IMG/VR virus record: IMGVR_UViG_3300038620_000134
Location: 1 to 64,000 of that record
Source of the DNA: a virus
Length of the DNA: 64,000 nucleotides
Reading direction: 5' to 3' (one strand)
The notes beneath the pieces were generated by a model. It was not told the DNA's origin and made no database searches. It was given only the letters and a program-made list of their open reading frames with translations. Positions 6,492 to 63,761 of the stretch are shown piece after piece (within the stretch, counting starts at the first letter, position 1; every line of letters starts with the position of its first letter). The translations under genes and the position numbers were made by a program.

Positions 6492-6503
6492 AATTAATTT
6501 TTT

Positions 6504-15422: not shown

Positions 15423-15429
15423 CAGAAAC

Positions 15430-15954: not shown

Positions 15955-15984
15955 ATCCCATAGCTATAATAAAAACTATGGGAT
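15955..15984 (-). terminator. Intrinsic terminator downstream of the SSB gene
   Basis: ATCCCATAG...CTATGGGAT preceded by an A-run. Confidence 0.55.
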
Positions 15985-16024
15985 CAAAACCAACATGTGA
16001 TACTAATTCAAAAACCGAAAAAGA

Positions 16025-17107
16025 TTATAAGTCGTCTAAAATATCATCAAAGTCATCTTCACTGTTGCCCCCAGAAGATTTATTAGAACCGGTACTACTA
16101 TCTTCACCCTCTAAATTATCTGGAAAACTTTTGTTGTCAGTAGAACTAGACTTTGAAATTCGATCCAGTTCATCTTCATCGTCTTCATCAGAACTTTTAC
16201 TTTTTGGTTTTGAAGATGAGTATTCCTTACCTATAATGTCCTTGTAATATTTTTCTTCAACGTGCTTTCTAATGAAAGCTTTGAGATTTTCAATAGTTTC
16301 TTCACTAGGTGGTTGATACTCGAACTGTTCAAAATCAGGGCTTTCACGCTCAAGATATTCTTTAACGCGTTGAAGGTCTTCTTCAGTATTACTAATCCTA
16401 ATGAGTTTTCCATTTTCATCATATTCAAACTCATTGTTCTCATTCGGAACCGCAATGGGTGTGACCTTTGATACAAAGCCACAAGCAGTATAATCGTTTT
16501 TAATTGGATCATCAGTTGGGTTTTCAACTTTGATGTTGAATTCTTTGGCTTCCAATAAGTTTGTTGGAAGCATCCTTTCATCTTCATCGTCATTCCAACG
16601 AAGATCCCTAACCTGCTTCCATATATGTTGATTAAGCTGCATAACCCTAATTTTTCCATTTAGTTCAGGATAAACCTTATCATCAATAATCTGAACTAAC
16701 ATAAAATGTTGGGGTTCACCTGAACGTTTGAAAAAGTCAGCTTTTTTAGCCTGCATAGGGTCTTTGTCCTTAAGGTTATAAAGCTTTTGCCACATTTTTC
16801 GAACTAAGTTATCTTCTTCTTTTGAGCGCCCCGCTGTTTCATCGTATTTTCCCTCCCAGCGAATCGGGCCTTCTTCTTCATCTCTAATGTTATAGTAAAT
16901 GTACTTACGAATAAACCATTTACTAGGATCTTTGTACCAAGGCACAAAACGTATTCTTGATTTGTAAACTCTGTCCTTTGCATCATGCGGACGGGGGCGG
17001 TACATTACTTCTTGAATACCACCCTTTTCATCATCAGATTCATTGGATGATGAACCAGATAGATTCAATTGAGAATTTGGCTTAAATAGATCTTTCAAGT
17101 CTGACAT
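16025..17107 (-). CDS. Single-stranded DNA-binding protein, T4 gp32-like
   Basis: IRFVP, VQIIDD..YPELNGKI and NDY..CGF motifs; Ser-rich linker; acidic tail DDFDDILDDL. Confidence 0.8.
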   Translation of the reverse strand: MSDLKDLFKPNSQLNLSGSSSNESDDEKGGIQEVMYRPRPHDAKDRVYKSRIRFVPWYKDPSKWFIRKYIYYNIRDEEEGPIRWEGKYDETAGRSKEEDNLVRKMWQKLYNLKDKDPMQAKKADFFKRSGEPQHFMLVQIIDDKVYPELNGKIRVMQLNQHIWKQVRDLRWNDDEDERMLPTNLLEAKEFNIKVENPTDDPIKNDYTACGFVSKVTPIAVPNENNEFEYDENGKLIRISNTEEDLQRVKEYLERESPDFEQFEYQPPSEETIENLKAFIRKHVEEKYYKDIIGKEYSSSKPKSKSSDEDDEDELDRISKSSSTDNKSFPDNLEGEDSSTGSNKSSGGNSEDDFDDILDDL

Positions 17108-34439: not shown

Positions 34440-36521
34440 ATGACTTCATATAATGAAAAAATAGCACAAAAATTAGAAGAATTAGACAACAATTATATTA
34501 AAAGTGGTGCTATATATGATAACCAGGTTGACGCAGCCAAAGAAATAATAAAAAGCTTTACTAAAGTTGATTCAGGAAAGAGTGAAAATGATAGCAGAAA
34601 TAGACATGTTATTTTATTAGCTCAAATGCAAAGTGGAAAAACCGGTGTGTGTAATGCCGTATGTAATATGCTTGAATATGTAAATCCCGATAATCAAATT
34701 AAATTGTCTAGTTATTTTGGTATAAAGCGTTACTTTTTTATAACTGGAATGAATGATGTTGCTTTAAGAGATCAAACTGCTAATCGCGTCAAAAATGAAA
34801 TTATTAATTCATATTCAAAAATTGACAATAATGAAGATGACCATTTAGGTAAGTATATTGTAACTGGTGATAATATAGCAAAACCAGAAGCAAAATACTT
34901 TATTGAAAAAAATAGTGATTTAAAAAAGGAAATAAATGCAAACATAGAAGACTGTATAGTATTTATTGATGAATCCCACTATGGTTCTAAAGAAGAAAAC
35001 GTGTTGACTAAATTTTTAAAAAATAATGATATTGATTGGAAAAACGATCCACAAAAATTAAAAAATAACAATATTTATATTGTTTCTATTTCAGCAACTC
35101 CTTTTACTGAAAGTTATAGTGATAAGAATGAAAGTAAACCTAAAATATCACTAGAAACAGATAATAATTATTATGGAGTAAAAGAATTTTTAGATTTGGG
35201 ATTGATTCATCATGCAGATAAAAAAAGTGATTTTAAAAGTAAGAGTTTTTTTCCCCAACCTAGTAAAAAAAAACGTTTGGAAAACTTTAGAAACTACATT
35301 GCACAAAACTTCTTAGGTTCTAAGGTAACCGTTGAACAAATGGTCAATATCTTTAACTACTACTTTTCCGATATAATGAGAGAAAAACAAGCCAAGAGCA
35401 ATCAATTCAAACAAAAAATGAAAATGCTTTTTGATATTGAAGATAAGAAAAGTGGAAGAACTCGTTACTATAAAATTAATAGTATAAAAAACTTTGATAA
35501 TTTTGATGACAAATATTTTATTAATAAATTTAAACCTGAAATAAAAAGTACTAAACAAGAACCTAACATTGTTGAGTATCTTAAAGATGCACATTCTAGA
35601 ATGAAGCAAAATTCACAAAGTTTAACACCTATAGGTGTATGTATTGTAAGATGTGATGGTAAAAAAATTCAAAAACTAAAAAATAATGACTTTATTAGCA
35701 GTTATTTTAGGATAATAGAGTTTAATAATGAAAACTACAAAAAATTAAATTTTGGTACTGAATTAAAAGATAAAATTGAACTAATGATAAAATCCGCTTC
35801 AGATTCTAATAAACATGCAAATGATAATTCAAACAAACCTCTTTTAATATTGATTAAAGGGGCTTTTCGTGCAGGTATAACTATACCTAATTATTATAAA
35901 GATTACATATATATGATATATGATATTGCTAATAAACCCCACACTACAGCTCAAGGTTTACTTGGTAGAATGTGTGGTTATAGAAGTAACGATAGTAACA
36001 TAGAAAATACTGCTTTTTATGTAAATAAAGATCATGCAGAAAAATATGCAGATTGGGTAAAGAATAACTTTAAAAGAAAATACATACCAATAAAAAAGAA
36101 AAAAAGAAGCAGTGTAAAATGTGCAACAGAAAATAAATTATCTTTTGGTCTTGACTTGGATTCTGTTAAAAAATTAAAAAAATCAAACGATCTAAAAAAA
36201 ACATTAAGTGAATTAAATGTTTCTATAGACTTTGATTATATAGGAGAGACATACTTAGCAAATAACTATCGAAATTATACAGAATATAGTCAAAGTGTTA
36301 AAGACAAATGGTATGATATAATTAACAGTAATGAACGTGGTGTACCAAGTTATAGGCATAAGAAAAAACCTTTAACTGAAGATGATATTGGAAAAACATA
36401 TATACATTTAGCTTTGAATGACATTGATAATGAACTTTATATATATAAAGGAAAAATTGTCAAAAGTAATCCACAACACAAAGAATTATATGAAAAGCAT
36501 AAAGACACTTCTGAATTTTAA
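34440..36521 (+). CDS. SF2 helicase/ATPase-like protein
   Basis: AQMQSGKTG (motif I), FIDESH (II), SATP (III), QGLLGRMCGY (VI). Confidence 0.8.
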   Translation: MTSYNEKIAQKLEELDNNYIKSGAIYDNQVDAAKEIIKSFTKVDSGKSENDSRNRHVILLAQMQSGKTGVCNAVCNMLEYVNPDNQIKLSSYFGIKRYFFITGMNDVALRDQTANRVKNEIINSYSKIDNNEDDHLGKYIVTGDNIAKPEAKYFIEKNSDLKKEINANIEDCIVFIDESHYGSKEENVLTKFLKNNDIDWKNDPQKLKNNNIYIVSISATPFTESYSDKNESKPKISLETDNNYYGVKEFLDLGLIHHADKKSDFKSKSFFPQPSKKKRLENFRNYIAQNFLGSKVTVEQMVNIFNYYFSDIMREKQAKSNQFKQKMKMLFDIEDKKSGRTRYYKINSIKNFDNFDDKYFINKFKPEIKSTKQEPNIVEYLKDAHSRMKQNSQSLTPIGVCIVRCDGKKIQKLKNNDFISSYFRIIEFNNENYKKLNFGTELKDKIELMIKSASDSNKHANDNSNKPLLILIKGAFRAGITIPNYYKDYIYMIYDIANKPHTTAQGLLGRMCGYRSNDSNIENTAFYVNKDHAEKYADWVKNNFKRKYIPIKKKKRSSVKCATENKLSFGLDLDSVKKLKKSNDLKKTLSELNVSIDFDYIGETYLANNYRNYTEYSQSVKDKWYDIINSNERGVPSYRHKKKPLTEDDIGKTYIHLALNDIDNELYIYKGKIVKSNPQHKELYEKHKDTSEF

Positions 36522-37329: not shown

Positions 37330-37445
37330 ATAAATACTTAAACAATAGTATTAAAGTGCAACTAATGTTAAGTTGTTAGCTGATAGGTTAGAAAACAATG
37401 TCCGATATTGTGAAGTTGATTGTGCTAAATTACTATAACAAATTC

Positions 37446-37476
37446 TTGACAATGTGGCATTTTATTTTTATATTTG
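37446..37476 (+). promoter_or_regulatory. Early promoter TTGACA-N17-TATATTTG
   Basis: Followed by TAGTAGATTGTTAAA, also found after the 39954 promoter. Confidence 0.72.
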
Positions 37477-37512
37477 TAGTAGATTGTTAAAAAGTTAAAC
37501 ACCACATCAACT

Positions 37513-37884
37513 ATGCAACTGGTTAATTTAACACCCCATTCCCTTCATCTTTATTCGGATGAAGGAAACTACATTTCTACCTTTGAAAGTAGAGGCCAAA
37601 TTCGTCTTGGTAGCTCTTTTCAAGAAGTAGAACGGCGACATTTCTCTAATGCAGAAGGGAGTATTCCAATCAAAGATATGTTCTTTGATGATAGCGCCTA
37701 TATTGAAATTGATGGTCAACAGTATAATACACTTCCTGAACCTAAGGAAGATACCGTATATGTAGTTTCCAAAATGGTCAAGAACGCGTTTCCAGAGCGC
37801 GAAGATTTTTTCGTTGTAAGCGAAACCGTAAGAGATGAAAATGGTAAAATCTGCGGTTTTAAAAGTCTTTCAAAGGGAGTTTAA
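37513..37884 (+). CDS. Conserved phage hypothetical protein
   Basis: NLTPH...LPEP....YVVS.MV...RD..G.I.G motif family. Confidence 0.75.
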   Translation: MQLVNLTPHSLHLYSDEGNYISTFESRGQIRLGSSFQEVERRHFSNAEGSIPIKDMFFDDSAYIEIDGQQYNTLPEPKEDTVYVVSKMVKNAFPEREDFFVVSETVRDENGKICGFKSLSKGV

Positions 37885-37904
37885 TATAGTTTAACTCCCT
37901 TTGA
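37870..37904 (+). terminator. Hairpin / probable terminator
   Basis: TCAAAGGGAGTT...AACTCCCTTTGA. Confidence 0.5.
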
Positions 37905-38028
37905 TAAATTAAAAAATCTATTTGATTAACAGAAACAATTTAGAATAGTTAAACACAAATAGACAGAACATACGACGGCATTAATGAGGCTTCTATTTAG
38001 GTGAGTTGTAAGATAACTTACCTGAATA

Positions 38029-38116
38029 GCCGGAGTGGCGGAAAGGAAGACGCTGCAGACTTAAAATCTGTTGGGATAATAAGCCCGTGGGAGTTCGAAT
38101 CTCCCCTCCGGCACCA
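38029..38116 (+). tRNA. tRNA-Leu(TAA), CCA encoded
   Basis: GCCGGAG/CTCCGGC acceptor stem, GCAGA-CTTAAAA-TCTGT anticodon arm, variable arm, ACCA end. Confidence 0.93.
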
Positions 38117-38151
38117 TCAGTTCAATTGAAAAACTTAAACTCAATCCCAAT

Positions 38152-38505
38152 ATGTCTAAACATGGTGAAGAATTTCATCACCTGTGATATCACCTGTACA
38201 TTGAATATAAAGGTAAAAAATATGAATTGGTTATTACTACTTCTTCTGATTCTGGAGAAACTGTAAAGTTTTCCACGAAGAAACATGATATTGAATTTGA
38301 CCTTGTTACTACGTCTTCTGATTTTGGGGAGGTTGTAACCGTTAAGTCTATTACAAAAAATATTCCTGATTTTCTTATACCAAAAACCTTATTTATTAAT
38401 CAAAAAGGCTCTGATTGGGAAGTTTATCGTGGAGAATCATTCGAAGATTATCAAAAAAGATTGAAAGAAGAAAATTGTTCAATATTTATAAGTAACTTAA
38501 CTTAA
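38152..38505 (+). pseudogene. Hypothetical gene interrupted by an in-frame TGA at 38185
   Basis: ATG 38152 gives MSKHGEEFHHL*YHLYIEYKGKKYELVITT, in frame with ORF 38227..38505. Confidence 0.45.
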
Positions 38506-38525
38506 TAACTTAAACTTTTTTAACC

Positions 38526-38876
38526 ATGAACTTGAGCATCAATAAAAGGCAAGAAAAAGGAAAAACCGCCATTTTAATTAGTCCGGCTTTTGGTGGCGGC
38601 TGGAGCACCGAAACAAGTAATAATAAACTCCGCGAGGCAGCGCTTTTCGATTCCCGCCTGATTGAGGCGGTTGAAAATGGAGATCAACAAGCCTTTGCTT
38701 ATCGAGTAGCCGAGATCAATGCAGCCTTCGCAGATAAATCACCGTTGAGAATTGGCTTGTTGGACGAGCGAGAACTTAATAATTTGCAAATAGAATGGGT
38801 GGATCAACCTTTCTATGTTCGAGAATACGACGGAGCAGAAATGCTTATTTTGGAAGAACAGTTGATTTCCCCCTAA
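38526..38876 (+). CDS. Conserved phage hypothetical protein
   Basis: A.L.SP.FGGGWS...EYDGAE motif. Confidence 0.75.
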   Translation: MNLSINKRQEKGKTAILISPAFGGGWSTETSNNKLREAALFDSRLIEAVENGDQQAFAYRVAEINAAFADKSPLRIGLLDERELNNLQIEWVDQPFYVREYDGAEMLILEEQLISP

Positions 38877-39002
38877 AGATTTATTTATTAAGTAAAACTA
38901 TGTATCTATTTTTGTTGTTTGTACTTCTTAGAAAGCAATTCACCAGATCTCTGAATTAAGATTGAAAAATTTTAAAGATTGCAACTTTTTTGGATGCAAC
39001 TC

Positions 39003-39033
39003 TTGACCCGGACTACTCTTTTGCCTAAATTGG
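39003..39033 (+). promoter_or_regulatory. Early promoter TTGACC-N17-TAAATTGG
   Basis: Conserved spacing with the other sites. Confidence 0.55.
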
Positions 39034-39096
39034 CAATTAGAAAGTTAGCACGGTAAAGAGCTAACTATTAGTTTAACCACTTAAAAACTTTGAATT

Positions 39097-39330
39097 ATGT
39101 TTACTATTAACGGAAACCCCAGAGTAAGTGTTCAAGAGTGTCAAGAAGATGAACTCTACCTCGATGCCATATACTTTCGGAATCGGGGTTCTTTAGGGCA
39201 CTGGGATGAAATTAAAGTTAACGCTGCAGAAGGTAACAATTGCCATTTAGGTCACATTTCCTTAAAACAATTCGAAGCAGTAAAAGAAATTGCTCGCCAA
39301 ATTCACCAGAAAAACGGTTATAAATTTTAA
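39097..39330 (+). CDS. Hypothetical protein
   Basis: 77 aa, with its own promoter and terminator. Confidence 0.7.
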   Translation: MFTINGNPRVSVQECQEDELYLDAIYFRNRGSLGHWDEIKVNAAEGNNCHLGHISLKQFEAVKEIARQIHQKNGYKF

Positions 39331-39351
39331 ACAGAACTAACCGTCTTTTAC

Positions 39352-39378
39352 CCAGCTAGCAAACTAGCTGGATTTTTT
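39352..39378 (+). terminator. Intrinsic terminator
   Basis: CCAGCTAG-CAAA-CTAGCTGG-ATTTTTT. Confidence 0.75.
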
Positions 39379-39431
39379 ACATTTAAAAATTTACTATCAA
39401 CAAAAAAATTTGAAATTCTTTGTCTGTAAGC

Positions 39432-39462
39432 TTGACAATTCCCTGTTTCTTTATTAACTTTA
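39432..39462 (+). promoter_or_regulatory. Early promoter TTGACA-N17-TAACTTTA
   Basis: Conserved spacing with the other sites. Confidence 0.65.
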
Positions 39463-39488
39463 AACTAAATAAAGATTAAAGATTAACT

Positions 39489-39944
39489 ATGGTACTCGTA
39501 GCAGTTACAGCAGAAGATTTACGTTTCGTATCATTAACGGACGAAGAAGGGTTGTGTTTAAGTGAGGATGCTGTTCGAAAAGGGCAGATAACTCAGCAGC
39601 GGATTGACGTTAGCTGGGAAAACTTGGATGCCGTAATTCCACACGGCGACTTTATAGATTACAAAGGAAATTTAGTAACCGTTGAAAAGTTATTTGTAGC
39701 TGTTCAACGCACGGCTGTAGGAACTATTTTGCGTTCCGAAGGACTTTATAATAGCTTCAAAGATCAGCCGAGGAAGGCTCTACAGGCTGTTTACGAACTA
39801 GCCGTAGAAAACTTGGAGGCAAATGAGCGTTACCGCAGAGAGTGGAATCGTAAGCATAACAGCGGCGGTCTAATGCCGTCGAAGCGCGTAAAGCTTTCAA
39901 CAGCTTGGGATAATGACCATGTAGACTGGGAAAATAAAAATTAA
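39489..39944 (+). CDS. Hypothetical protein
   Basis: 151-aa ORF. Confidence 0.7.
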   Translation: MVLVAVTAEDLRFVSLTDEEGLCLSEDAVRKGQITQQRIDVSWENLDAVIPHGDFIDYKGNLVTVEKLFVAVQRTAVGTILRSEGLYNSFKDQPRKALQAVYELAVENLEANERYRREWNRKHNSGGLMPSKRVKLSTAWDNDHVDWENKN

Positions 39945-39953
39945 AATTATCCC

Positions 39954-39984
39954 TTGACAATACCAAATTTTTGTATTATACTTG
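39954..39984 (+). promoter_or_regulatory. Early promoter TTGACA-N17-TATACTTG
   Basis: Overlaps the ORF-track start at 39971, so the true start is likely ATG 40019. Confidence 0.7.
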
Positions 39985-40018
39985 TAGTAGATTGTTAAAC
40001 GATAAACCATTTTCAATT

Positions 40019-41080
40019 ATGAGTAATCAAGTTAAAAGGACGGATATTTTTAAGGTTGACCTGAGTTTGGTCAACATTGTTCAAGATTTCAATGCCCGTG
40101 ATTTTTCAGACCCGGAAAATATTGCGCGGGTAAACGAAATAGCAAAGTCCATTGAGGCTCGCGGGCAGATCCATCCCGTTAATGCTTTCAAAGAAGACGG
40201 GAAGTATTGGTTAATCGACGGCGAAACTCGGTTTCGTGCCATTAAGCAAATTCAGGATAACCTGAATGAAAATGGCAATACCGAGGCTGCTGATAACATT
40301 CGAATCCTTCTTCGGGTTGTTCCAAAATCAGAAACTGGAGAAGAAAATCGGATGTTTATGATGTTGGCGGCAAATGATTCTAAGCCGCTTAATCCAATAG
40401 AAACAGCGTTTGCTTACAAGCGCCTAACTAACATGGGTTATACGGCTAGTGAAATTTCCCGCCAACTGGGGGTTTCTGTTCCCAACGTAACCAATACGCT
40501 TTATCTTGCAACTGCTCCAAAATATTTGCAAGATGCGGTTAAGGACAAGAAGATTGCCGTAACGACAGTAGTTAAGCTTATTCGGGAATCTGAAAATCCC
40601 GATAAAGCCAAGGAGGTTGTTGAAGACTTGATTGAAAATCAGGGGTATTCGAAAGTCAAAGCAAAAGATTTAAGCCTTGACCAGAACCACTCCAGTTCAA
40701 ATCAAGAGCCAACCGAAGAACCGATCGAGGAATCGACTGAAGAACCAACTCAAAACACCGACAATGGCTTCGATTCCGAAGTTTCTAAAGAGCCTAATAA
40801 AAGTTCGGAAAAGAAGCCCGGCTCAAATAACCCCAAAAAGGAAAAGATTCAAGGTAAAGTTCAAAATATTATTGAAAGTCTTGATTCCGATAATTCCTTT
40901 GAATTTTACCTAGAGAAGGTTCTTCAAATGGTTGGTGATAGCGAAGTAAGTTCCGAAGAAGTTATCAAGTACATTCAAAGTAACCGTACAAGCGAAACGA
41001 CTGAAATTGATGACTTCTTTGGTGGAGAAAATAACGTTATTGAATTTGAAAACGCTGAATTCACTAACTTTTATAACTAA
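40019..41080 (+). CDS. ParB/Srx-like domain protein with HTH
   Basis: FNAR, IA.SI...GQIHPV, LIDGETRFRA, and HTH-like ASEISRQLGVSVPNV. Confidence 0.82.
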   Translation: MSNQVKRTDIFKVDLSLVNIVQDFNARDFSDPENIARVNEIAKSIEARGQIHPVNAFKEDGKYWLIDGETRFRAIKQIQDNLNENGNTEAADNIRILLRVVPKSETGEENRMFMMLAANDSKPLNPIETAFAYKRLTNMGYTASEISRQLGVSVPNVTNTLYLATAPKYLQDAVKDKKIAVTTVVKLIRESENPDKAKEVVEDLIENQGYSKVKAKDLSLDQNHSSSNQEPTEEPIEESTEEPTQNTDNGFDSEVSKEPNKSSEKKPGSNNPKKEKIQGKVQNIIESLDSDNSFEFYLEKVLQMVGDSEVSSEEVIKYIQSNRTSETTEIDDFFGGENNVIEFENAEFTNFYN

Positions 41081-41100
41081 GTTAAAGGTTAGAATAGTTG

Positions 41101-41185
41101 GATGCACCTGAAGAAGTTGGGGGTGATTTTAATTGTAACCGTAACAATTTAGCATCCCTTGAAGATACAACCTAAAAAGGTTGGG
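41101..41185 (+). repeat. Orphan non-coding LRR repeat cassette
   Basis: Reads DAPEEVGGDFNCNRNNLASLEDT, then after a 1-nt insertion PKKVG; nearly identical to 63147..63230. Confidence 0.85.
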
Positions 41186-41192
41186 AAAGTTT

Positions 41193-41223
41193 ACAGGATG
41201 GTTTACAACCATCCTGTTTTTTT
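41193..41223 (+). terminator. Intrinsic terminator
   Basis: ACAGGATGGTT-TAC-AACCATCCTGT followed by a T-run, between convergent genes. Confidence 0.75.
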
Positions 41224-44200
41224 ATATATTAGACTGTAGTATATTGTAAACCAGTTTTCCTGATATATTAACCTTTTTGTTTGTTTTAATACTTTCGTTT
41301 ACTTCACCCGAAAACATAAACCAAACATCTTCATTATTTGTGGGGTATGGTACAAATTCTACGCGTTCATTATCTACAAGTGCTTCTATAATAACGGGGC
41401 AAGACTTTACAAATTCGGAATAACTCATTTCCTTTAGATTTGCAGACGCCTTGTTTTTATATTTCAACTTTTTAATTTCAATGCCAGAATTGTTTAGTTG
41501 CTCCATATTTTCAACCATTTGAACATTGTTATATTCTTTCGTTGAATTCGCTTTGTCTTTTACATATTTTTCACGACTTGACATTAGCATTGCTGCCATA
41601 TCCGATCCATACATTTTAGATAAGCTTTCAAAAGACGATTCGTTCTTTTTGTCATCACTACCAACCATTGAACCTTGTTCTAATGAATCGTGTGTTTGCT
41701 GTTTTCTATCAGATTTACGAACCGCGTCACTTAATCCAGCAAGATTCATTCTTTGGGCATATGTACTTTTTATGTTATCTACCTGATCCTGTGTATCTGT
41801 TAATTCCGAAGGGTATGATGCGTTTGCATCTCCAGTATCACTAACTGTAAAATAACGGTTTGCACCAGAATGGTATCCACTTACATATGCGTCTTCTTGT
41901 TCATCTTTCAGTCTTACATTATCACCTGGATGAAAGCGTTTTGTTGCTCCTGTTTTTTGGATTGCCTCATCGACCTGTTGATATTTATCTTTAAGCTCTT
42001 GTAGTTGTTTTTCTAATTTTGAACGCATTACTTTTACTTGACTTGATTCTTGAACACTACTACTAGATTTAGCAATTTTATCAAGATTTTCATTAACTTT
42101 GTTAATTTTTTTCATAATTTTTTCGCGCTCAATTTCATATTGTTTTACAGCAGATTCGCGCTCATTAAGAATATCGTGGAAAAGATAACTTGCATCCACA
42201 TCATGGTTTTCTTGAATAAGCTGTAAAGCATTATTTGCATTAGTTTTTTCAAACTTATTTTCATATGTTATGGGATCAATATGATGAATGTAAACTTGAT
42301 TTGCAATTTTATAAACATTTGTTACCATACCTTCATAAAGCTTGGATTCAAAGGTTTTTGCAAAGTCCAACCAAACCATATTGTCAATTATATCCAATCC
42401 ATTTTCAATTACTTGGGTAATATTGTCTCTACCCATAACAAGTCCAAGATAGCTAATTCGATTTAGCATTGATTCCTTGTTACTCGCCTCAAATACTTTA
42501 TTGTTAATGTTTACTGTTTTGTATTCAAAGGGATACATTTCATTAATGTTCTTCTTAAAGTATATGCAGCCGTCTTCTCTATCGTAGTCAACATTATAGA
42601 TTTCTTCAAATATACCTTGAATTGTGTCAGCCAAATTTTCTGATTGCTCATGTGTTATAGATGGGCATTCATATATTCCAGTTTCTTTTTCATTGCCATA
42701 TCCACTTAGTATATCTCTTTTATCTTTTTCTAACAAATTATCAATACTTGTTACAGGTGGATATTCACTCTTATTGTTTTGTATTTCAACGCGATTTTGA
42801 GAACCCTCAAATATTAACGTATCGTTTTTGTAATAAAATTCTTTAAGCGAACTAACTTTTTCAGTTAAAGAGTTTGGTGCGGTATTTTCATTTATTCTAA
42901 AAATTTGATTTCCATTTTTAATTAAGAAGTAATCACCGCTGTTAAAAAAGTATTGGTGTCTGGAATCGCCATATTCAAAAAGAGCATAAACATTTTTTAC
43001 ACTCACTGAATTTGTTTCGCTTTCTGAAGTAAAATCATATTGGCGAAGCTTAGTGCTATAATTGACTTTATCTTGTGCTTTTGAAGCCTTAAATGAATTG
43101 TTTGTTGCAATTTTTTGAAGATTGTCAAGTAAAGTATCCACAAATTCATAAAGTCCTCTAAACTTATTAAGTTCAGTGGTAACATAGCTAGTTGCTTGAT
43201 ATTCTGGGAGTGAAAATGCACGTTCTAATATATCTATAATTTTACTATATTGTTCTGGATACTGTGAGTTCTCCAGTATATCTTTTGTTTGTGCAATTGC
43301 AACGTAAGGTCTTAAATTAGTAAGATTTCGTTTAAGTGTTGAAATGCTGTTAGAAACAGCATTATCGTACTGCCAATTAGCCAACCCATTCATTACATTT
43401 TCAATAAGCATGTAATCACGGGGTTCATTATTCTTTTGTTCATATACTTGATCTACAAAGTATTGAAGTTGAATATTGGTAGCATAAGCATCTGTTTGTT
43501 GAAGATCATTAAGAACTTGTTTAACTCCAAGATCCCTCACATCATTTTTACGTTTTTCGCTTTCTAAAAAGCTACGGATGTATTCATCTTTACGATCACT
43601 GTTAATTTCTAAATCTGCGAGTTCTCTTTCTAGAAGTTTACGGAGTTCTGCTTCATTTAATCCGTAGTTCAGTACATTCTTAAATTCTTGTAGTTTTTCT
43701 TTTATTCTGTAATCTGATGTATTTCTTTCACATTTTTCAATATCATTATTTAGTTTTTCAGCTTGTTTGCGGTTTACTTCTTTTTGACTTTCCGAAAGTT
43801 GATAATTTGCAAACTTGTTTAAAACTAAATCTACTATACTGCTTCTATGATCACAGTTTTTAATATTTTCAATTAGTATTCTAATTTTGTCTTCATTCTT
43901 TTCAAGAACTTTTTGCATTTGAATTGCGTGTTGAACACGTTCTATAACTTGTGGGGACTTTACTGTTTTTAGTATAAAGTCCGTAAGCTCATTAAAGTTT
44001 TCGGGAATAAGTTCATAAGATACTTTTTCTACAAGTTTATTGGCTGTTTTGTTTTGCTTAAATTCTTTAAGATTTACTACAATTGAATTTTGTAGTTTAC
44101 GCTCATCAAAATTCTTTTCAAGTATTTTAGTAGCAACTTCATAAAGATTTTGGTCTTTGTTAAAGTAAGCTACTCTAGCCACTTCATCAAGTTTAATATA

Positions 44201-44662
44201 ATTTTCTAATCTATTAAAGTTTTCAGAAATATTATTTAATTTTCTTGAATAATAATCTGAACTTCTACCAAGTTCTTGAAATTCACTCATAAACTGGGTG
44301 TAAACTTCACATTCTTTATTATCTGCTAAATACCGATTTAGTTCAATTACGGATTCCTGTATTCCATGAGATTCACCAAAGTCATCTTCTACATTGTTAA
44401 TAAAGTTTCTTATACCTAGATTATCAATGTTGTGTTTTGAGCGTTCCAGTTCTAGAAGTTTTTGAATACTGGAATTTTCAATTAGCTTTTGGCTTAATAC
44501 ATTCACGTTATCAAACCTTGCAAATAATTCACGTCTCACATTGATTTCATTAAGTTGATTTTGCTTACAATAACTGATAAAGTCATTGAAGGCTTCTCTA
44601 ACCTGTTCGTTTTTCAGGCTGTTAGATACTTTTTTGATTCTTTTGAAAATGCTTATACTCAT
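41222..44662 (-). CDS. Large coiled-coil late protein (possible head core/scaffold)
   Basis: 1146 aa, TAAATA promoter, many L/I-x-E motifs; family not recognised. Confidence 0.7.
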   Translation of the reverse strand: MSISIFKRIKKVSNSLKNEQVREAFNDFISYCKQNQLNEINVRRELFARFDNVNVLSQKLIENSSIQKLLELERSKHNIDNLGIRNFINNVEDDFGESHGIQESVIELNRYLADNKECEVYTQFMSEFQELGRSSDYYSRKLNNISENFNRLENYIKLDEVARVAYFNKDQNLYEVATKILEKNFDERKLQNSIVVNLKEFKQNKTANKLVEKVSYELIPENFNELTDFILKTVKSPQVIERVQHAIQMQKVLEKNEDKIRILIENIKNCDHRSSIVDLVLNKFANYQLSESQKEVNRKQAEKLNNDIEKCERNTSDYRIKEKLQEFKNVLNYGLNEAELRKLLERELADLEINSDRKDEYIRSFLESEKRKNDVRDLGVKQVLNDLQQTDAYATNIQLQYFVDQVYEQKNNEPRDYMLIENVMNGLANWQYDNAVSNSISTLKRNLTNLRPYVAIAQTKDILENSQYPEQYSKIIDILERAFSLPEYQATSYVTTELNKFRGLYEFVDTLLDNLQKIATNNSFKASKAQDKVNYSTKLRQYDFTSESETNSVSVKNVYALFEYGDSRHQYFFNSGDYFLIKNGNQIFRINENTAPNSLTEKVSSLKEFYYKNDTLIFEGSQNRVEIQNNKSEYPPVTSIDNLLEKDKRDILSGYGNEKETGIYECPSITHEQSENLADTIQGIFEEIYNVDYDREDGCIYFKKNINEMYPFEYKTVNINNKVFEASNKESMLNRISYLGLVMGRDNITQVIENGLDIIDNMVWLDFAKTFESKLYEGMVTNVYKIANQVYIHHIDPITYENKFEKTNANNALQLIQENHDVDASYLFHDILNERESAVKQYEIEREKIMKKINKVNENLDKIAKSSSSVQESSQVKVMRSKLEKQLQELKDKYQQVDEAIQKTGATKRFHPGDNVRLKDEQEDAYVSGYHSGANRYFTVSDTGDANASYPSELTDTQDQVDNIKSTYAQRMNLAGLSDAVRKSDRKQQTHDSLEQGSMVGSDDKKNESSFESLSKMYGSDMAAMLMSSREKYVKDKANSTKEYNNVQMVENMEQLNNSGIEIKKLKYKNKASANLKEMSYSEFVKSCPVIIEALVDNERVEFVPYPTNNEDVWFMFSGEVNESIKTNKKVNISGKLVYNILQSNI

Positions 44663-44756
44663 GGAATAAGAGTTTTTTTGGTTTGTTTTATTTATTTATT
44701 GTTTACAAAAAAAGCTTTGTTATTTATTATTAGTTTTAATAAATAGTAAAAAAAGT

Positions 44757-45842
44757 ATGAATCACTTTCAAATATTATATAATTCAGGTATTTTAACAGA
44801 AGATGAAGACCTAGAATTAGAATATGTAGATGATGACATAAACGAAGATATAGTTGAAATTGAATTTGATGAAGGTATATATGAACGCGGGCTTGGTTTC
44901 AGTATGAGAGATGTTCCCGGTTCGGAAAATGTAAGTAAAGCTATTAGTAGTGCTGGCGAACAAGTTGTAGGATACTTTAAGAAAGTTTTAAGATACAAAA
45001 AAGCAAAAAAACGCCTTAAAAAGTATTTAAAAAAGTATAACAAAATAATGAATAATTCTGTTGATGAATATGTTAAAATATACAAAGACTGGTTAGATGA
45101 ATATAACAAAATTGAAGATGATGATAAACTTAGTAAAGAAGATAAAAAACAAAAAGAAGAAGAGTTAAAAGAAGATGTAAAAAAACAAAAAGAAGAAGTA
45201 GAAGCAGATGTTGAAGGAAAAATAGAAGAAGCATCTGCAAAACTTGATGATATAATTGAAAAACTTGAAGGTCACCACAAAAAAGTTATTGAAGCTAGAA
45301 AGAAAGCTGGTGAAACAAAAGCTAACTTAGAAGCAGAAAGAAAAATAACTAAAGAAAAAATTAAACTTACCGATAACAGTAAACATAAAAAAGAAATCAA
45401 AAGTAATTTTAAAGAGGTTGAGAAAGAAAAGAAAGAAAAAATAGAAAGTTATAAAGAAACTGCTGATAATGCCGAAGAAGAAGCTAAAGAAAAAAGAAAA
45501 GAAAAGGAACAGGAAATGGAAGAAAGGGCTGGGGAGCATAGAAAAGAAATGGAAAAATTACAAAAAGAGTATAAAGAAATATATGATAAGTTAAATAAAG
45601 TAGTTAATAAAAAAGGAAGTAAAGACAAGGCTGAAGAACTTTTAGATGATCTTTTTGTAAAAGATAAAGAAATTAAAAAAGTTTTTGATAAGTATTTAAA
45701 AGCTATGGGCAAAAAACCTAAAGAAGGAAGTTACTACAACCTTAAAGGCGAAGATAAAAAGGAAATAAGAAATAATGTTAGACAAATGGTGGCTAAACCA
45801 GAGGATAAAAATGAATCGATTTTAATTCTTGACTTTGACTAA
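44757..45842 (+). CDS. K/E-rich coiled-coil late protein
   Basis: Acidic N-terminus with LTE/INE/IYE motifs; AATAAATA upstream. Confidence 0.7.
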   Translation: MNHFQILYNSGILTEDEDLELEYVDDDINEDIVEIEFDEGIYERGLGFSMRDVPGSENVSKAISSAGEQVVGYFKKVLRYKKAKKRLKKYLKKYNKIMNNSVDEYVKIYKDWLDEYNKIEDDDKLSKEDKKQKEEELKEDVKKQKEEVEADVEGKIEEASAKLDDIIEKLEGHHKKVIEARKKAGETKANLEAERKITKEKIKLTDNSKHKKEIKSNFKEVEKEKKEKIESYKETADNAEEEAKEKRKEKEQEMEERAGEHRKEMEKLQKEYKEIYDKLNKVVNKKGSKDKAEELLDDLFVKDKEIKKVFDKYLKAMGKKPKEGSYYNLKGEDKKEIRNNVRQMVAKPEDKNESILILDFD

Positions 45843-47413
45843 ATTTTTACTTTATGTATTTCATAAGGGTGTTGTTTTTTGTCGTACACTTTTTTTCTTT
45901 CATTCATGTGTTTAAGTGAATAATTTACATAGTTGTACTTATAGCCATCTGCAAAAGTGTAAGACGTTTTGAAATTGTCTGCTATATCGTAAAAGTTAAT
46001 CTCATTTTTGTTTTCATGGGTTCTTAACCCCCTACCAAGCGTTTGCATGATAGTTATTTGAGATTTGTAGTTTTGAGCAAGAATTATGTTATGTAAATTA
46101 TGTATGTTAATTCCTGTAGAAACACATCCAAAAGATGCTATTAAAATTTTATTTGTTCCTTCTTCCATCTTTTCTACAAATTCCCGTCTTTGCTCTTTAT
46201 CGGTGTGACCATCAATGTAATAAATTTCTTTTCCTTTTGTTTCGCTTTTTAATCTTTGATAAATTCGTTTTCCATACTCCCACTTAACATCATTAAAAAG
46301 AACCATTGAATTATTTTCGAATTCTTTAACAAAATTTACAAGCCAAGTAAGTCTTTTGTTATTTTGTATAATTTTTAACTGTTCTTTTGAATATAGATCT
46401 GTGGATTCTATTTTTTTAGAACCTGCTAAATAAGCCAATTCTTTTCTTTCATCTTTGCTTAAGTAGTTTAGTTCATATATTTGTATATTAACGGGTGATG
46501 AATAACCTTTATCTATAAGTTCTTTAGCAGGAACATCAACGACAATTGGGCCTATTGAACTCTGTAAAGTGAAAAAGTCAGCGGTTCCTTCAATATCTAA
46601 TGTTTTTATAGTTCCTGAAACACCATACTTATAATTAACATTTGTACAACGTTTTTGAAGAATGTTTTTAATTGTTGTGGTTTTTGCTTTATGTGATTCA
46701 TCACAAACCACCATATCAAAGTCTTTGAAAAAATCTTTATCTTGATTATTAAGTGTTTGATAAGTAGAAATCAAAATTTCGGAATCATTAGTAAACGTGT
46801 CTATACCCGAATACTTTTGAGCTACGTTTAAATTACCTTTAGTCCAATCGTGGTAAGTACAGAAATCACCATAACCCTGTGCAACTAGTCCTACAGTAGG
46901 AACAATAACAAGCATTTTTCCATTAAGTTTACCCATTTCTTTAAGATAGGAGTAAAGAACATAAATAATAAAGGTTTTTCCTCCAGATGTTCCAATTTGT
47001 GCTTGTCCAAATCTATACTTAGCTAGTTTATATATAGTATCAATTTGATAATCCCTTTTATCAAAACCTAATCTGTCAGTAAATTTTGATTGAACATAGC
47101 TGTCAATATAATCTTTGGTTACGTCTAAATTAAATGTTTCTTTAAGCCCGTCTATTTTAAGATCTGATTTAACTTGTTTTGAAAAGTTGTACAATTCATA
47201 CCATAACCCAATTGGTATTCTTTGTGCTTTTGTAAAGAATTTTATTTCACCGTCAAAACCACGGAAACTCCTACCTTTCTTTTCTGCTACCTTCTTTTTA
47301 ATCCAAAAATCTTTAACTTTTCTTGTAAAATAAGTTTCTAAATTTTTAACATCAGTTTCTGTTCCATCTACTAAGCGAAGGTATTTTTCATTTGATTCTA
47401 CTTCAAATCTCAT
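45839..47413 (-). CDS. uvsW: UvsW-like DNA helicase
   Basis: RDYQ, GTSGGKT, IVPT, DESH, GVSGT, STGINI, QTLGRGLR and YDIAD. Confidence 0.9.
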   Translation of the reverse strand: MRFEVESNEKYLRLVDGTETDVKNLETYFTRKVKDFWIKKKVAEKKGRSFRGFDGEIKFFTKAQRIPIGLWYELYNFSKQVKSDLKIDGLKETFNLDVTKDYIDSYVQSKFTDRLGFDKRDYQIDTIYKLAKYRFGQAQIGTSGGKTFIIYVLYSYLKEMGKLNGKMLVIVPTVGLVAQGYGDFCTYHDWTKGNLNVAQKYSGIDTFTNDSEILISTYQTLNNQDKDFFKDFDMVVCDESHKAKTTTIKNILQKRCTNVNYKYGVSGTIKTLDIEGTADFFTLQSSIGPIVVDVPAKELIDKGYSSPVNIQIYELNYLSKDERKELAYLAGSKKIESTDLYSKEQLKIIQNNKRLTWLVNFVKEFENNSMVLFNDVKWEYGKRIYQRLKSETKGKEIYYIDGHTDKEQRREFVEKMEEGTNKILIASFGCVSTGINIHNLHNIILAQNYKSQITIMQTLGRGLRTHENKNEINFYDIADNFKTSYTFADGYKYNYVNYSLKHMNERKKVYDKKQHPYEIHKVKI

Positions 47414-56052: not shown

Positions 56053-57573
56053 ATGCGAATAAAATCTTTCCAAGAATACATTAATTCGACTTCCATTGAT
56101 GAAGCACTCCATCCAAGTCAAGCAAAACCATATATTAAAGCATGGAAAGAAGCTGGAGGTGAAAAATTTTATCGTGACATCTTTGGAAAGAAAGAAAATG
56201 GAAAACCCAAATATAGACTTTACTTGGAGCTTAAAGAATCCAAAGAGCAGAAACAAAAGATAAGCAAAGATGTTAGGGATAGAATCAATAAAGCTTTAGA
56301 ATATACAAATTATGAAGTTGAAGATTTTAATCAAAATTTAGCAATTTCAAAAGATGGTGAAAATACTAAAAAAGTAACAAGTGAACTTTCAAAAAATAAA
56401 AAATTAAAAAAACAAGATGAAATTAATATAGATAAACTCCTTCAAGATTACAGTGAGGAACTAAGTAAAAAGTCAACCCAAAGAGAACAAGACGATTATC
56501 TTGTAGTAATTTCACGGCATCCATACGATATTGCGGGGATGAGCACCGATAGAGGTTGGACTAGTTGTATGGACTTAGATACTGGAAGTCAAAAATTCTA
56601 TGTAATGGAAGATGTTAAAAAGGGAACAATTATAGCTTATTTAATTAAAAAAGATGACTTGAATATTAATAATCCTGTTGCACGGATTTTAATAAAACCT
56701 TATGTTAGTGGGGACGGTGAAGAAATTGCACTGTTTAGAGATAAAGAAGTAGATGAATTTAAAGGAGAACCAGTTAAGGGATTTAAAGAAACAATTGATG
56801 CTTGGCTAGAAAAGAATCAAAAGTTAAGTAAAACCAAGTATTATCAACTTCAAGGATTGTATAAAGATGGAAAGTGTGAATATAATCCAGATGCTCCAGT
56901 TAAAGCTATACTAAATGATTTTGTTAAAGGAACTTTTGAAGTAGATGGAAACACAATTAGTGTTAATGGGAATGTAAATTTACGTAGAAAACCTAAAGTT
57001 TTTAAAAAAATTACAAAAAACTATAAGTTTGGATATGTTAGTGGTAATTTTAATTGTTCTAATAATAATTTAACATCCCTTGAAGGTGCACCTGAAGAAG
57101 TTGGGGGTTATTTTATTTGTGAGTATAACAAATTAACATCCCTTGAAGGTGCCCCTGAAAAAGTTGGGGGTAGTTTTATGTGTTCTCGTAATGGATTAAC
57201 ATCCTTGGAAGGTGCACCTGAAGAAGTTGTAAGTGGTTTTATTTGTGATGATAATAATTTAACATCCCTTAAAGGTGCCCCTGAAAAAGTTGGGGGTAGT
57301 TTTATTTGTTATAGGAATGGTTTAACATCCCTTGAAGGTGCACCCGAAAAAGTTGGAGGTGAATTTGATTGTAGATTTAATCAATTAACATCCCTTGAAG
57401 GTGCACCTGAAAAAGTTGGAGGTGATTTTTATTGTAGATTTAATCAATTAACATCCCTTGAAGGTGCACCTGAAAAAGTTGGAGGTGATTTTTATTGTGG
57501 TAAGAATAAAAAAGATTTTACAAAAGAAGATGTTAAAGCTGTTTCTGATGTTGAAGGTGAAATAAAAGTTTAA
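56053..57573 (+). CDS. LRR protein paralog (7 repeats + cap)
   Basis: Same N-terminal domain with one divergent block (ISKDGENT...DYSEE). Confidence 0.9.
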   Translation: MRIKSFQEYINSTSIDEALHPSQAKPYIKAWKEAGGEKFYRDIFGKKENGKPKYRLYLELKESKEQKQKISKDVRDRINKALEYTNYEVEDFNQNLAISKDGENTKKVTSELSKNKKLKKQDEINIDKLLQDYSEELSKKSTQREQDDYLVVISRHPYDIAGMSTDRGWTSCMDLDTGSQKFYVMEDVKKGTIIAYLIKKDDLNINNPVARILIKPYVSGDGEEIALFRDKEVDEFKGEPVKGFKETIDAWLEKNQKLSKTKYYQLQGLYKDGKCEYNPDAPVKAILNDFVKGTFEVDGNTISVNGNVNLRRKPKVFKKITKNYKFGYVSGNFNCSNNNLTSLEGAPEEVGGYFICEYNKLTSLEGAPEKVGGSFMCSRNGLTSLEGAPEEVVSGFICDDNNLTSLKGAPEKVGGSFICYRNGLTSLEGAPEKVGGEFDCRFNQLTSLEGAPEKVGGDFYCRFNQLTSLEGAPEKVGGDFYCGKNKKDFTKEDVKAVSDVEGEIKV

Positions 57574-61937: not shown

Positions 61938-63761
61938 ATGCGAATAAAATCTTTCCAAGAATACATTAATTCGAGTTCCATTGATGAAGCACTCCATCCA
62001 AGTCAAGCTAAATCTTATATTAAAGCATGGAAAGAAGCTGGAGGTGAAAAATTTTATCGTGACATCTTTGGAAAGAAAGAAAATGGAAAACCCAAATATA
62101 GACTTTACTTAGAACTCGAAGAGTCTGAAGAACAAAAACAAAAGATAAGTAAAGATGTTAGAGATAGAATCAATAAAGCTTTAGAATATACAAACTATGA
62201 AGTTGAAAATTTTAATAAGAATATAGCGGTTTCGGATAAAAGAACAACCAGTATTATAAAAGTTTTAATGAAAGATAGTGGTCTTAAAAAGAGTGATATA
62301 AATGTTCAAAAGTTAAAAAGTGATTACGAAAAAGAACTTAATAAGAAATCAACTCAGAGAAAACAAGATAACTATCTTGTAGTGATTTCGCGTCATCCAT
62401 ACGATATTGCTGGAATGAGCACGGATAGAGGTTGGACTAGTTGTATGGACTTAGATACTGGAGGTCAAACATTTCATATAATGGAAGATGTTAAAAAGGG
62501 AACTATAATTGCATATCTTATTAAAAAAGATGACTTGAATATAAACAACCCTGTTGCACGGGTTTTAATAAAACCTTATGTTAGTGAAGATAGTGAAGAA
62601 ATTGCTTTATTTAGAGATAATTATAAAGAAATTAAAGGAGAACCAGTAAAGGGATTTAAAGAAACAATTGATGCTTGGCTAGAAAAGAATCAAAAGTTGA
62701 GTAAAAGTAAGTACAAACAACTTAAAGGACTATATGACGAGGGAAGATGTGCTTATAATCCAGATGCTTCAATTGAAGCTATATTAAATGATTTTGTTAA
62801 AGGAACTTTTGAAGTAGATGGAAACACAATTAGTGTTAATGGGGATGTAAATTTACGTAGAAAACTTGAAGTTTTTAAAAAAATTACAAAAAACTATAAG
62901 TTTGGATATGTTAGTGGTGATTTTTACTGTTCTAATAACGACTTAACTTCTCTTGAGGGTGCTCCTGAAGAAGTAGGTGGTAATTTTAATTGTGAGTATA
63001 ACAAATTAACATCCCTTGAAGGTGCACCTGGAGAAGTTGGGGGTGATTTTGATTGTAAATTTAATAATTTACGAACACTTGAAGGTTCACCTGAAAAAGT
63101 TGGGAGTAATTTTAGTTGTATATTTAATAAATTAACAACTCTTGAAGGTGCACCTGGAGAAGTTGGGGGTGATTTTGATTGTTCCCATAACAATTTAGCA
63201 TCCCTTGAAGATGCACCTAAAAAGGTTGGGGGTGAATTTAATTGTCTTGGTAATAGTTTAACATCCCTTAAAGGTGCCCCTGAAAAAGTTGGGGGTAAAT
63301 TTAACTGTAGTGGAAACCAATTAACATCACTCGAAGGTGCTCCTGAAAAGGTTGGGGATAATTTTATTTGTAGATCTAATAAATTAACTTCCCTTGAGGG
63401 TGCTCCTGAAAAGGTTGGGGGTAGTTTTATTTGTTATAGGAATGATTTAACATCCCTTAAGGGCACACCTAAAAAGGTTGGGGATGATTTTTATTGTATG
63501 AATAATAAATTAACATCCCTTGATGGAGGACCTGAAGAAGTTGGGGGTCGTTTTGATTGCTCTCATAATAAATTAACTTCCCTTGATGGTGCTCCTAAAA
63601 AAATTGGAAGTGATTTTAGTTGTACGTTTAACAAATTAACATCTCTTCAAAGTGCACCCGAAAAAGTTGGAGGTGATTTTGATTGTAGATTTAATAGAGA
63701 AAATTTTACAAAAGAAGATGTAAAAGCTGTTTCTGATGTTGAAGGTGAAATAAAAGTTTAA
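61938..63761 (+). CDS. LRR protein paralog (12 repeats + cap)
   Basis: Same N-terminal domain; 12 repeats counted. Confidence 0.9.
   Translation: MRIKSFQEYINSSSIDEALHPSQAKSYIKAWKEAGGEKFYRDIFGKKENGKPKYRLYLELEESEEQKQKISKDVRDRINKALEYTNYEVENFNKNIAVSDKRTTSIIKVLMKDSGLKKSDINVQKLKSDYEKELNKKSTQRKQDNYLVVISRHPYDIAGMSTDRGWTSCMDLDTGGQTFHIMEDVKKGTIIAYLIKKDDLNINNPVARVLIKPYVSEDSEEIALFRDNYKEIKGEPVKGFKETIDAWLEKNQKLSKSKYKQLKGLYDEGRCAYNPDASIEAILNDFVKGTFEVDGNTISVNGDVNLRRKLEVFKKITKNYKFGYVSGDFYCSNNDLTSLEGAPEEVGGNFNCEYNKLTSLEGAPGEVGGDFDCKFNNLRTLEGSPEKVGSNFSCIFNKLTTLEGAPGEVGGDFDCSHNNLASLEDAPKKVGGEFNCLGNSLTSLKGAPEKVGGKFNCSGNQLTSLEGAPEKVGDNFICRSNKLTSLEGAPEKVGGSFICYRNDLTSLKGTPKKVGDDFYCMNNKLTSLDGGPEEVGGRFDCSHNKLTSLDGAPKKIGSDFSCTFNKLTSLQSAPEKVGGDFDCRFNRENFTKEDVKAVSDVEGEIKV

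Follow-up and report, generated by a model that had tools for sequence, protein, structure and literature searches.

The LRR fragment described here lies in the short interval between two convergent genes of a phage, far from any gene that encodes the same repeat (Table 1). The DNA analysed, hereafter the window, comprises positions 1–64,000 of a linear IMG/VR record of 81,724 b (IMGVR_UViG_3300038620_000134), the completeness of which is ~31% according to CheckV. The window has a G+C content of ~30% and four tRNA genes, and the PHROG matches in the record include a 1149-aa tail sheath, a DNA helicase and a dNMP kinase, hence the record represents a fragment of a large (jumbo-type) myovirus. 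The DNA runs that contain the locus are tidal-flat metagenomes.

Upstream of the fragment is a parB-like gene, while downstream are a hairpin resembling an intrinsic terminator and, just beyond it, the stop codon of a gene on the opposite strand. The 1146-aa product of the latter matched only itself and two proteins at 22–24% identity in a search of 5.8 billion proteins. The parB-like gene is part of a block of raised G+C content (0.35–0.43 from ~37.4 to 41.0 kb, compared with ~0.29 elsewhere), which may have been acquired, and the fragment sits at the right edge of this block. The hairpin palindrome is unique in the window, with one half-site elsewhere that is not palindromic, and was therefore discarded as a candidate repeated element or parS-like site.

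Table 1. Coordinates of the fragment, its neighbours and its relatives in the window
Feature	Position	Strand	Description
LRR paralogue A	374–1909	−	LRR gene
LRR paralogue B	1926–3176	−	LRR gene
LRR paralogue C	7686–9449	−	LRR gene
Second-closest unit	7776–7859	−	gene C unit 525, GAPEEVGGDFDCNRNNLISLEGAPEEVG; 72/84 identical to the fragment
parB-like gene	39971–41080	+	369 aa; stop codon 41078–41080; HTH_ParB 46.5 bits (cut-off 22.6); phrog_1033, E 9.7e-42
Orphan LRR fragment	41101–41185	+	1.35 units of the 63-bp repeat; unique in the window
Gene-A segment of the fragment	41103–41136	+	34 nt identical to 578–611 (minus strand)
Gene-C segment of the fragment	41132–41151	+	20 nt identical to 7809–7828 (minus strand); covers hypervariable codons AAC CGT
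Gene-E-type segment of the fragment	41142–41185	+	41142–41166 (25 nt) = 63188–63212; 41170–41185 (16 nt) = 63215–63230
Intrinsic-terminator-like hairpin	41193–41217	+	11-bp perfect stem (5 G-C pairs), 3-nt loop, then T7
Convergent gene	41222–44662	−	1146 aa; no Pfam or PHROG match; stop codon just beyond the hairpin
LRR paralogue D	56053–57573	+	LRR gene
LRR paralogue E	61938–63761	+	607 aa; 12 regular units
Closest unit	63147–63230	+	gene E units 398–419, GAPGEVGGDFDCSHNNLASLEDAPKKVG; 77/84 identical to the fragment, which has one extra A

The parent repeat and its predicted fold

The five paralogues share an architecture of an N-terminal domain of ~330 aa, for which there was no Pfam match, followed by 21-aa (63-bp) repeats with the consensus LTSLEGAPxxVGGxFxCxxNx, and then a constant tail. 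The variable residues of this phage LRR family sit in the xFxCxxN stretch. The units conform to the length of 20–29 residues and the LxxLxLxxNxL-type core by which LRRs are recognised. An AlphaFold2 model of paralogue E, built from a 16-sequence alignment, had a pLDDT of 94–98 across the repeat array, and all four of its PDB matches at E ≤ 0.001 were LRR proteins, the best being YopM (4ow2_A, E 1.4e-6), then SspH2 and IpaH3. The earlier assignment of the repeat as an LRR is thereby borne out, with the parent repeat being, by predicted fold, an LRR solenoid, even though Pfam LRR_4 scored below its gathering cut-off (24.1 compared with 27 bits). The repeat family is large, with 3911 proteins at E ≤ 1e-5 among the 8000 candidates scored. 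A literature search of limited scope turned up no paper on this phage LRR family, which is not to claim that none exists.

Extent and coding capacity of the fragment

The preliminary description had placed an intergenic LRR unit between the parB-like stop codon and the terminator, ~15 kb from the nearest LRR gene. Both statements hold: the fragment begins 20 nt after the stop codon, and the nearest LRR gene (paralogue D) begins 14.9 kb away, at 56053. The 85-mer occurs once in the window, and searches allowing up to three mismatches found no match in 100 shuffles. When the region 40981–41300 was compared with the window by BLAST, similarity to LRR units was limited to 41100–41186, and the flanks were no more LRR-like than random DNA, as 35 of 600 random record segments scored at least as highly as the left flank and 104 of 600 at least as highly as the right. 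On these counts, two candidate extensions were dropped: the left flank as the 3′ end of an LRR gene (GTTAAAGGT..ATAGTT), and the terminator region as a YRNGLTSL unit.

The fragment does not retain the capacity to encode a repeat. Its translation in the LRR frame is DAPEEVGGDFNCNRNNLASLEDTT, followed by a TAA codon that is reached because of one extra A near 41169, which causes a +1 frameshift. There is an in-frame TAG at 41095–41097, one codon upstream, no start codon in the LRR frame, and truncation at both ends; its open frame is 25 aa. It therefore has the properties of a gene relic, in combining homology to a paralogue (77/84 to gene E), disabling lesions and the lack of an intact frame.

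No other remnants of the family were found in the 81.7 kb of the record using tblastn with protein E, including any remnant of the N-terminal domain near the fragment. The scan of the whole record for further orphan units, which the preliminary description had proposed, likewise found no second example, with the other matches all within the five genes, although more orphans could sit in the portion of the genome that this ~31% complete record lacks. The absence of an N-terminal-domain remnant anywhere near also led to the rejection of the idea that the G+C-rich parB block is an island inserted into an LRR gene. In this record together with eight loci from other phages, two of which (L034 and L035) resemble duplicates of each other, a hidden Markov model of the unit identified 48 clusters, and 47 of these fell within open frames of 140 aa or more. 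The exception was the fragment, and this frequency of one in 48 clusters outside an open frame suggests a rare accident, rather than a class of designed elements.

Fidelity of the assembly

A contig misjoined at a repeat that also occurs in an LRR gene could generate such an arrangement. The Logan contigs of two runs, X1 and X2, end at 41132, the next contig of X1 starts at 41103, and none bridges the fragment, as might be expected were the join artefactual. However, the break corresponds exactly to the 34-mer at 41103–41136 that is common to gene A, and it is this identity that forces a k=31 graph to branch. Furthermore, on either side, the unique sequence and the adjoining half of the fragment are found together in a single contig, and the two flanking contigs are alike in depth (11.8 and 10.5). 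The alternative pairing of edges would also cut gene A short, while that in the assembly leaves it with the usual C-terminal tail of its family. Hence it is highly improbable that the fragment is an artefact of assembly.

The fragment as a mosaic of expressed paralogues

The closest relative of the fragment is a unit of gene E, at 91.6% identity by BLAST (63149–63230, with 6 mismatches and 1 gap over 83 nt), followed by a unit of gene C at 85.5% (7776–7857). Among 39 in-gene 84-nt windows, the identity to the nearest neighbour ranged from 67 to 84, so the fragment, at 77, ranks towards the top of the values for the family, and its pairing with 63147–63230 is specific. The seven substitutions and the extra A that had been listed between these two copies were all found as claimed: six of the seven differences are on adenines of the fragment, and one is on a G.

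These differences can be assigned to the two copies by comparison with the rest of the family. Firstly, at columns 2 and 67 of the alignment, the fragment has an A where 38 and 37, respectively, of the 39 in-gene windows have a G (37 and 36 of 38 when the gene E partner is left out), meaning these are changes on the side of the fragment. Secondly, at column 11, it is gene E that is peculiar, with a G where 37 of the 38 other units have an A, and the change is therefore on its side. Thirdly, columns 31, 37, 38 and 41 are the hypervariable x positions of xFxCxxN. Columns 11, 31, 37 and 38, which account for four of the six adenine differences, are in states that units of other paralogues also carry. 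Every base of the fragment is present in the family at its column, with rare bases at columns 2 and 67 only, and the sole further private change is the inserted A. Column 2, being at the very edge of the homology, may represent flanking sequence rather than a substitution, and the A at 41167 (a G-to-A change) and the adjacent extra A could be a single event.

The remaining sequence can be assembled from expressed genes, with which the fragment shares exact tracts of 34, 25, 24 and 20 nt. The preliminary description had reported a core identical to a repeat of gene C, and the identity is real, although it extends over 20 nt rather than 18. The gene-E-type segment is interrupted by the G-to-A change at 41167 and the extra A. 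When the fragment was covered by in-gene units using dynamic programming, the best mosaics had 7, 4, 2 and 1 mismatches at 0, 1, 2 and 3 breakpoints, respectively. Hence two breakpoints leave just two mismatches and the extra A, and most of the 'adenine' differences are variants common to other members of the family. By this measure, the fragment ranked 9th of 40, tied with three in-gene units, and thus it behaves as an ordinary family member.

Such mosaicism is general in the family, with several units having two or fewer mismatches to a mosaic. Exchange is also apparent within genes, as two units of gene C are identical (84/84), and two of gene D nearly so (81/84). Between phages, LRR modules are ~90% identical in records that otherwise share almost nothing. 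A record of 110 kb from a different contig set, G007, has an A-type LRR gene with the module LTTLEGAPEEVGGDFDCSHNNLASLEDAPKKVGGEFNCLGNS, which shares 90% identity with gene E across 266 nt. The G007 unit differs from 63147–63230 at one of 84 positions, column 11, where it has the A found in the fragment and the family. Judged from these sequences, it is evident that modules are exchanged patch-wise among the five paralogues and across phages, and the DCSH state of gene E is old, stable and common to two otherwise unrelated phages. As this module is near-unchanged in G007, the NCNR state of the fragment is the derived one, and recombinant, being within the 20 nt identical to gene C.

The backgrounds against which these modules are shared were themselves divergent. 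When 81 G000 ORFs (ATG start, at least 80 aa) were compared with the whole of G001 and G007, ten matched at E ≤ 1e-8, five of which were LRR genes. The ParB-like gene was absent from each of the eight other LRR-bearing records (G001, G007 and the remainder of G002–G008), and the 1146-aa gene was neither found by a dedicated search of G001 nor matched in G007 in the ORF comparison. Searches for relatives covering the site returned none with the ParB-like protein in viral or metagenome contigs, none with the 1146-aa protein in viral contigs, and none with its C-terminal 399 aa in metagenome contigs; the exact 21-nt pattern of the left junction had no match in viral contigs.

Adenine differences and the possibility of a DGR

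The preponderance of adenines among the differences had led to the suggestion that the fragment is a DGR-like template. It would then be the template repeat (TR), copied with adenine-specific errors into cDNA that replaces the unit at 63147–63230, the putative variable repeat (VR). Six of the seven differences being on adenines of the fragment is in keeping with this, as are its AAY codons and the ~90% identity of the copies, which Wu et al. 2018 (PMC5758913) give as typical of TR-VR pairs. The same source describes some DGRs with indels and non-adenine changes, so the indel in the fragment is not alone decisive against a DGR. The record is also ~31% complete, such that a reverse transcriptase could sit in the missing part.

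However, the adenine bias is weakened when it is considered in the context of the family. Among 1504 pair-by-base tests on family members, the two smallest nominal P values were 0.0029 for the fragment against gene C and 0.0056 against gene E, the latter being the pair in which the bias was originally noticed, yet this number of tests means they fail multiple-testing correction, being far from the corrected threshold. Nor is the fragment enriched in adenine, as its count of 27 is inside the range of the 39 in-gene windows (20–33, median 25). Moreover, 22 of its 28 adenines, including the extra one, are unchanged in the gene E unit, and four of the six adenine sites that do differ have the states of other paralogue units.

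The components of a DGR were also lacking. It had been noted that the window encodes no reverse transcriptase, and this extends to the whole 81,724-b record, in which RVT_1 had no matches at E ≤ 1, with nothing within 40 kb on either side of the fragment; the Avd-type family PF05635 likewise had no matches at E ≤ 1 in the 81.7 kb. Some DGRs use accessory proteins other than Avd. No reverse transcriptase was found in any of the eight other LRR-bearing records either, and three of G002–G008 are 100% complete according to CheckV.

Finally, the target does not resemble a VR. It differs at one of 84 positions from the unit of another phage, hence it is neither hypervariable nor being diversified. 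It is internal to an LRR array that runs on in frame after 63230, and has no IMH-like end, whereas in DGRs the VR terminates in an IMH that an inverted repeat often follows (Wu et al. 2018, PMC5758913). The only inverted repeat here (41193–41217) instead adjoins the putative TR, rather than the putative VR, and the homology stops at the same point in both copies. The same source also describes VRs as mostly C-terminal, with C-type-lectin and Ig folds as the VR classes, as against an LRR fold for this target, and places the TR of the prototype Bordetella phage beside the reverse transcriptase, in one cassette of adjoining genes. The template hypothesis is therefore not supported by the 81.7 kb of the record, and is close to being refuted, a DGR being the most improbable of the origins considered for this fragment.

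Transcription, RNA structure and peptides

The position of the fragment between a gene and its terminator raises the alternative that it acts as a regulatory RNA, either antisense or a structured 3′ untranslated region, or that it encodes a 16-aa peptide, MHLKKLGVILIVTVTI. The terminator is predicted for the plus strand only, as the minus-strand fold is a hairpin followed by AAACUUU, with no U tract (the hairpin has no T run on this strand). Consequently read-through from the 1146-aa gene could yield a candidate RNA antisense to all LRR mRNAs, and this putative transcript would be perfectly complementary to gene A over 34 nt. On the plus strand, the predicted fold consists of the terminator, a small CAACCU/AGGUUG hairpin and a stem inherent to every unit, with a z-score of −3.4. 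The extra A and the G-to-A change at 41167 lengthen the small hairpin, and the A at 41102 creates the ATG of the hydrophobic 16-aa frame. Yet it is the terminator that contributes most to the low folding z-scores, there was no Rfam match at the gathering score (three fell well short of it, at E 0.08–0.58), and the 16-aa frame, which has no convincing ribosome-binding site, is expected by chance. We therefore regard a function as an RNA or a peptide as very unlikely.

Exchange with expressed genes and the possibility of a silent donor

The mosaic structure of the fragment is also compatible with its being a silent donor or exchange-partner cassette, which would swap patches with expressed paralogues by homologous recombination, and thereby enlarge the repertoire. 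The exact tracts of 34, 25 and 20 nt are shared with three different expressed genes, and would in principle be long enough for phage recombinases. The mosaicism throughout the family, and the movement of modules between phages, are also in keeping with such a role.

Nevertheless, several observations are difficult to reconcile with donation. This is the one orphan in 81.7 kb, with none in the loci of the eight other LRR-bearing records; when the whole of G001–G008 was searched with a 63-aa three-unit query, the best 150 of 250 matches each lay within an open frame of 140 aa or longer, without stops, although short orphans could be hidden among the 100 weaker ones. Known silent-cassette systems use many donors. 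The extra A is in the conserved framework, meaning exchange tracts crossing it would break the recipient gene, and its combination with the A at column 67 is absent from every expressed unit. Over 38000–46000, Logan contigs from four DNA runs on tidal flats had no other letters at the fragment's locus, although contigs lose rare variants, uncovered stretches carry no information, and the gene E region is outside this interval. An invertible or shufflon-type system was considered and discarded, as the record has no serine or tyrosine recombinases. The proposal of a gene-conversion donor, which the preliminary description had put first, is thus not supported, given the single copy, the frameshifted framework and the lack of variants in these contigs. 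That the fragment serves as such an exchange partner is unlikely, and that it is a silent cassette maintained by selection, trading patches with the five paralogues and perhaps with the LRR genes of co-infecting phages, is more doubtful still. Were it true, this jumbo phage would have a recombination-based LRR repertoire with non-coding storage copies, as a viral analogue of vls and VLR.

Discussion

The fragment is probably a relic, young and non-coding, that recombination among LRR paralogues left behind. Of the origins suggested by the preliminary description, this corresponds to debris from mobile repeat units, which is favoured by the mosaic of paralogues, the frameshift, the stop codon and the truncated ends. 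Frequent recombination, or patch-wise gene conversion, would shuffle 63-bp LRR modules among the five paralogues and between phages, and the fragment would have arisen as a by-product, landing in the small gap that separates the parB-like gene from the terminator it has in common with the convergent 1146-aa gene. Without the 85 nt, this spacer consists of 20 nt and the hairpin, which is a normal, compact convergent junction, and the layout expected if the fragment were inserted.

We infer that the insertion was a single templated event, or patch copy, which would have started in the conserved GCACCTGAAGAAGTTGGGGGTGATTTT block and ended in the next such block. The alternative route, by which a former sixth paralogue was lost to leave a scar, would be less parsimonious, as it needs at least two deletions, and there is no trace of an N-terminal domain or C-terminal tail. 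The sequence GTTGG, which occurs as a direct repeat of 5 nt at the two junctions (41097–41101 and 41180–41184), fits microhomology-mediated insertion or return, but is only a hint, since 8.8% of random sites show the same.

Following such an insertion, the relic would have decayed neutrally for a short time, with a bias towards AT, in a genome with ~30% G+C, and the only private changes, two family-rare A bases and an inserted A, are consistent with this. To judge from the alignment, its retention of nearly all family-consensus bases would reflect either youth or constraint. Its lack of function is likewise an interpretation: if transcribed at all, it would be a passive passenger in the 3′ untranslated region of the parB-like gene.

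While the fragment is minor in itself, its identification as a probable relic removes the attractive but unsupported reading of the locus as a DGR or donor cassette. It also serves as a marker, suggesting that patches of 63-bp LRR modules pass from one paralogue to another, and here even into non-coding DNA. The ~90% identity of modules across phages supports recombination, rather than mutagenesis by a reverse transcriptase, as the process diversifying this widespread phage LRR family.

The parent proteins resemble the short bacterial LRR proteins of the YopM, IpaH and SspH type in having 21-residue repeats, in a solenoid that in the phage family is predicted. The likeness is nevertheless in fold only, at 13–26% identity, with the phage proteins carrying a different N-terminal domain of 330 aa, and the fragment itself encoding nothing.

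As in the TR/VR pair of a DGR of the Bordetella phage BPP-1 type, a non-coding copy is ~90% identical to part of a gene, and most differences are on adenines of the former. The similarity ends there: no reverse transcriptase or Avd was found in the 81.7 kb, the target is internal to an LRR array and without an IMH-like end, and the hairpin is beside the wrong partner. Unlike a VR, the target unit is conserved in another phage, and the adenine sites are standing variants of the family.

Borrelia vls, Neisseria pilS and the LRR cassettes of lamprey VLR are gene-conversion systems that draw upon silent cassettes. The fragment has in common with them that it is an unexpressed partial copy, sharing a framework with expressed genes in a family that undergoes patch-wise exchange. 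However, it is a single cassette rather than an array, its framework is frameshifted, neither machinery nor a signal dedicated to recombination is nearby, and there is no evidence of donation.

Fragments and relics of genes left by ectopic recombination in multigene repeat families form a general category, and it is to this that the fragment is closest. Like other such relics, it is homologous to functional paralogues, truncated at both ends, frameshifted, intergenic and mosaic, with neither start codon nor promoter. It differs from them in being very short, at 85 nt, and very young, with two rare substitutions and one indel, and in its location in a compact phage genome, where junk is rare (one of the 48 unit clusters sampled). 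Hence the fragment is ordinary in kind: the young relic of a recombining repeat family.

The orphan fragment and its surroundings

Within the 85-nt non-coding LRR fragment lies a frame of 16 codons (window 41103-41153; MHLKKLGVILIVTVTI), the ATG of which depends solely on the A at 41102, a position at which the LRR family has G. This small frame is probably a product of chance. The parB-like gene upstream of the fragment, together with several small ORFs that found no match in Pfam or PHROG, occupies a block spanning window 37400-41000, in which G+C content is 0.35-0.43, as against about 0.29 elsewhere. The rise in G+C begins near a tRNA-Leu (38029-38116), and the block may be an acquired segment. 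Separately, a 693-aa protein (window 34440-36521) barely exceeded the cut-off of the Pfam model cpSF2-GREB1, a circularly permuted SF2 helicase, scoring 26.3 bits against a threshold of 26.2.

Duplication and exchange of LRR modules

Gene C, one of the LRR paralogs of this record, contains two windows, 7839-7922 and 8091-8174, that belong to a 252-bp higher-order repeat and are identical at 84 of 84 positions, a pattern that points to recent internal duplication or conversion.

Similarity also extends between separate phages. A 266-nt block of LRR units in gene E (window 63106-63371) is 90% identical to part of an A-type LRR gene of another LRR-bearing phage record, G007 (L037:11133-11398). 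Only 10 of the 81 ORFs in the present record matched either G007 or a further such record, G001, at E <= 1e-8, and five of these ten are the LRR genes. These sequence comparisons suggest that LRR genes, or modules of them, pass from one large phage to another to which it is otherwise unrelated.

Two shorter stretches are likewise shared, one with G007 and one with G001. Within a 275-aa ORF (window 3188-4015, minus strand), 45 aa are 91% identical to positions 46516-46650 of G007, which directly adjoin the LRR gene of that phage; the ORF itself is unrelated, and the common stretch may represent a shared leader or N-terminal module. Outside the window, 87 nt at 79109-79195 of the record are 92% identical to L031:8363-8449 in G001, within DNA that is otherwise unrelated, and a 24-aa tblastn match (79124-79492) falls in the same place. 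A tRNA is one possible identity for this stretch, and some other small conserved element is another.

LRR gene batteries in other large phages

Other large phage records (G002, G003 and G006) carry back-to-back tandem batteries, each comprising 5 to 14 short LRR genes with open frames of 140-354 aa. When a three-unit LRR query was compared with whole records, 76 matches were found in G004, another LRR-bearing phage record, and 64 in G003. Among jumbo phages, the LRR genes form a large multigene family.

Positions of tandem LRR gene batteries in other large phage records
Feature	Locus	Record	Positions in locus
LRR gene battery	L032	G002	49-3436
LRR gene battery	L033	G003	1323-15517
LRR gene battery	L036	G006	6764-16028
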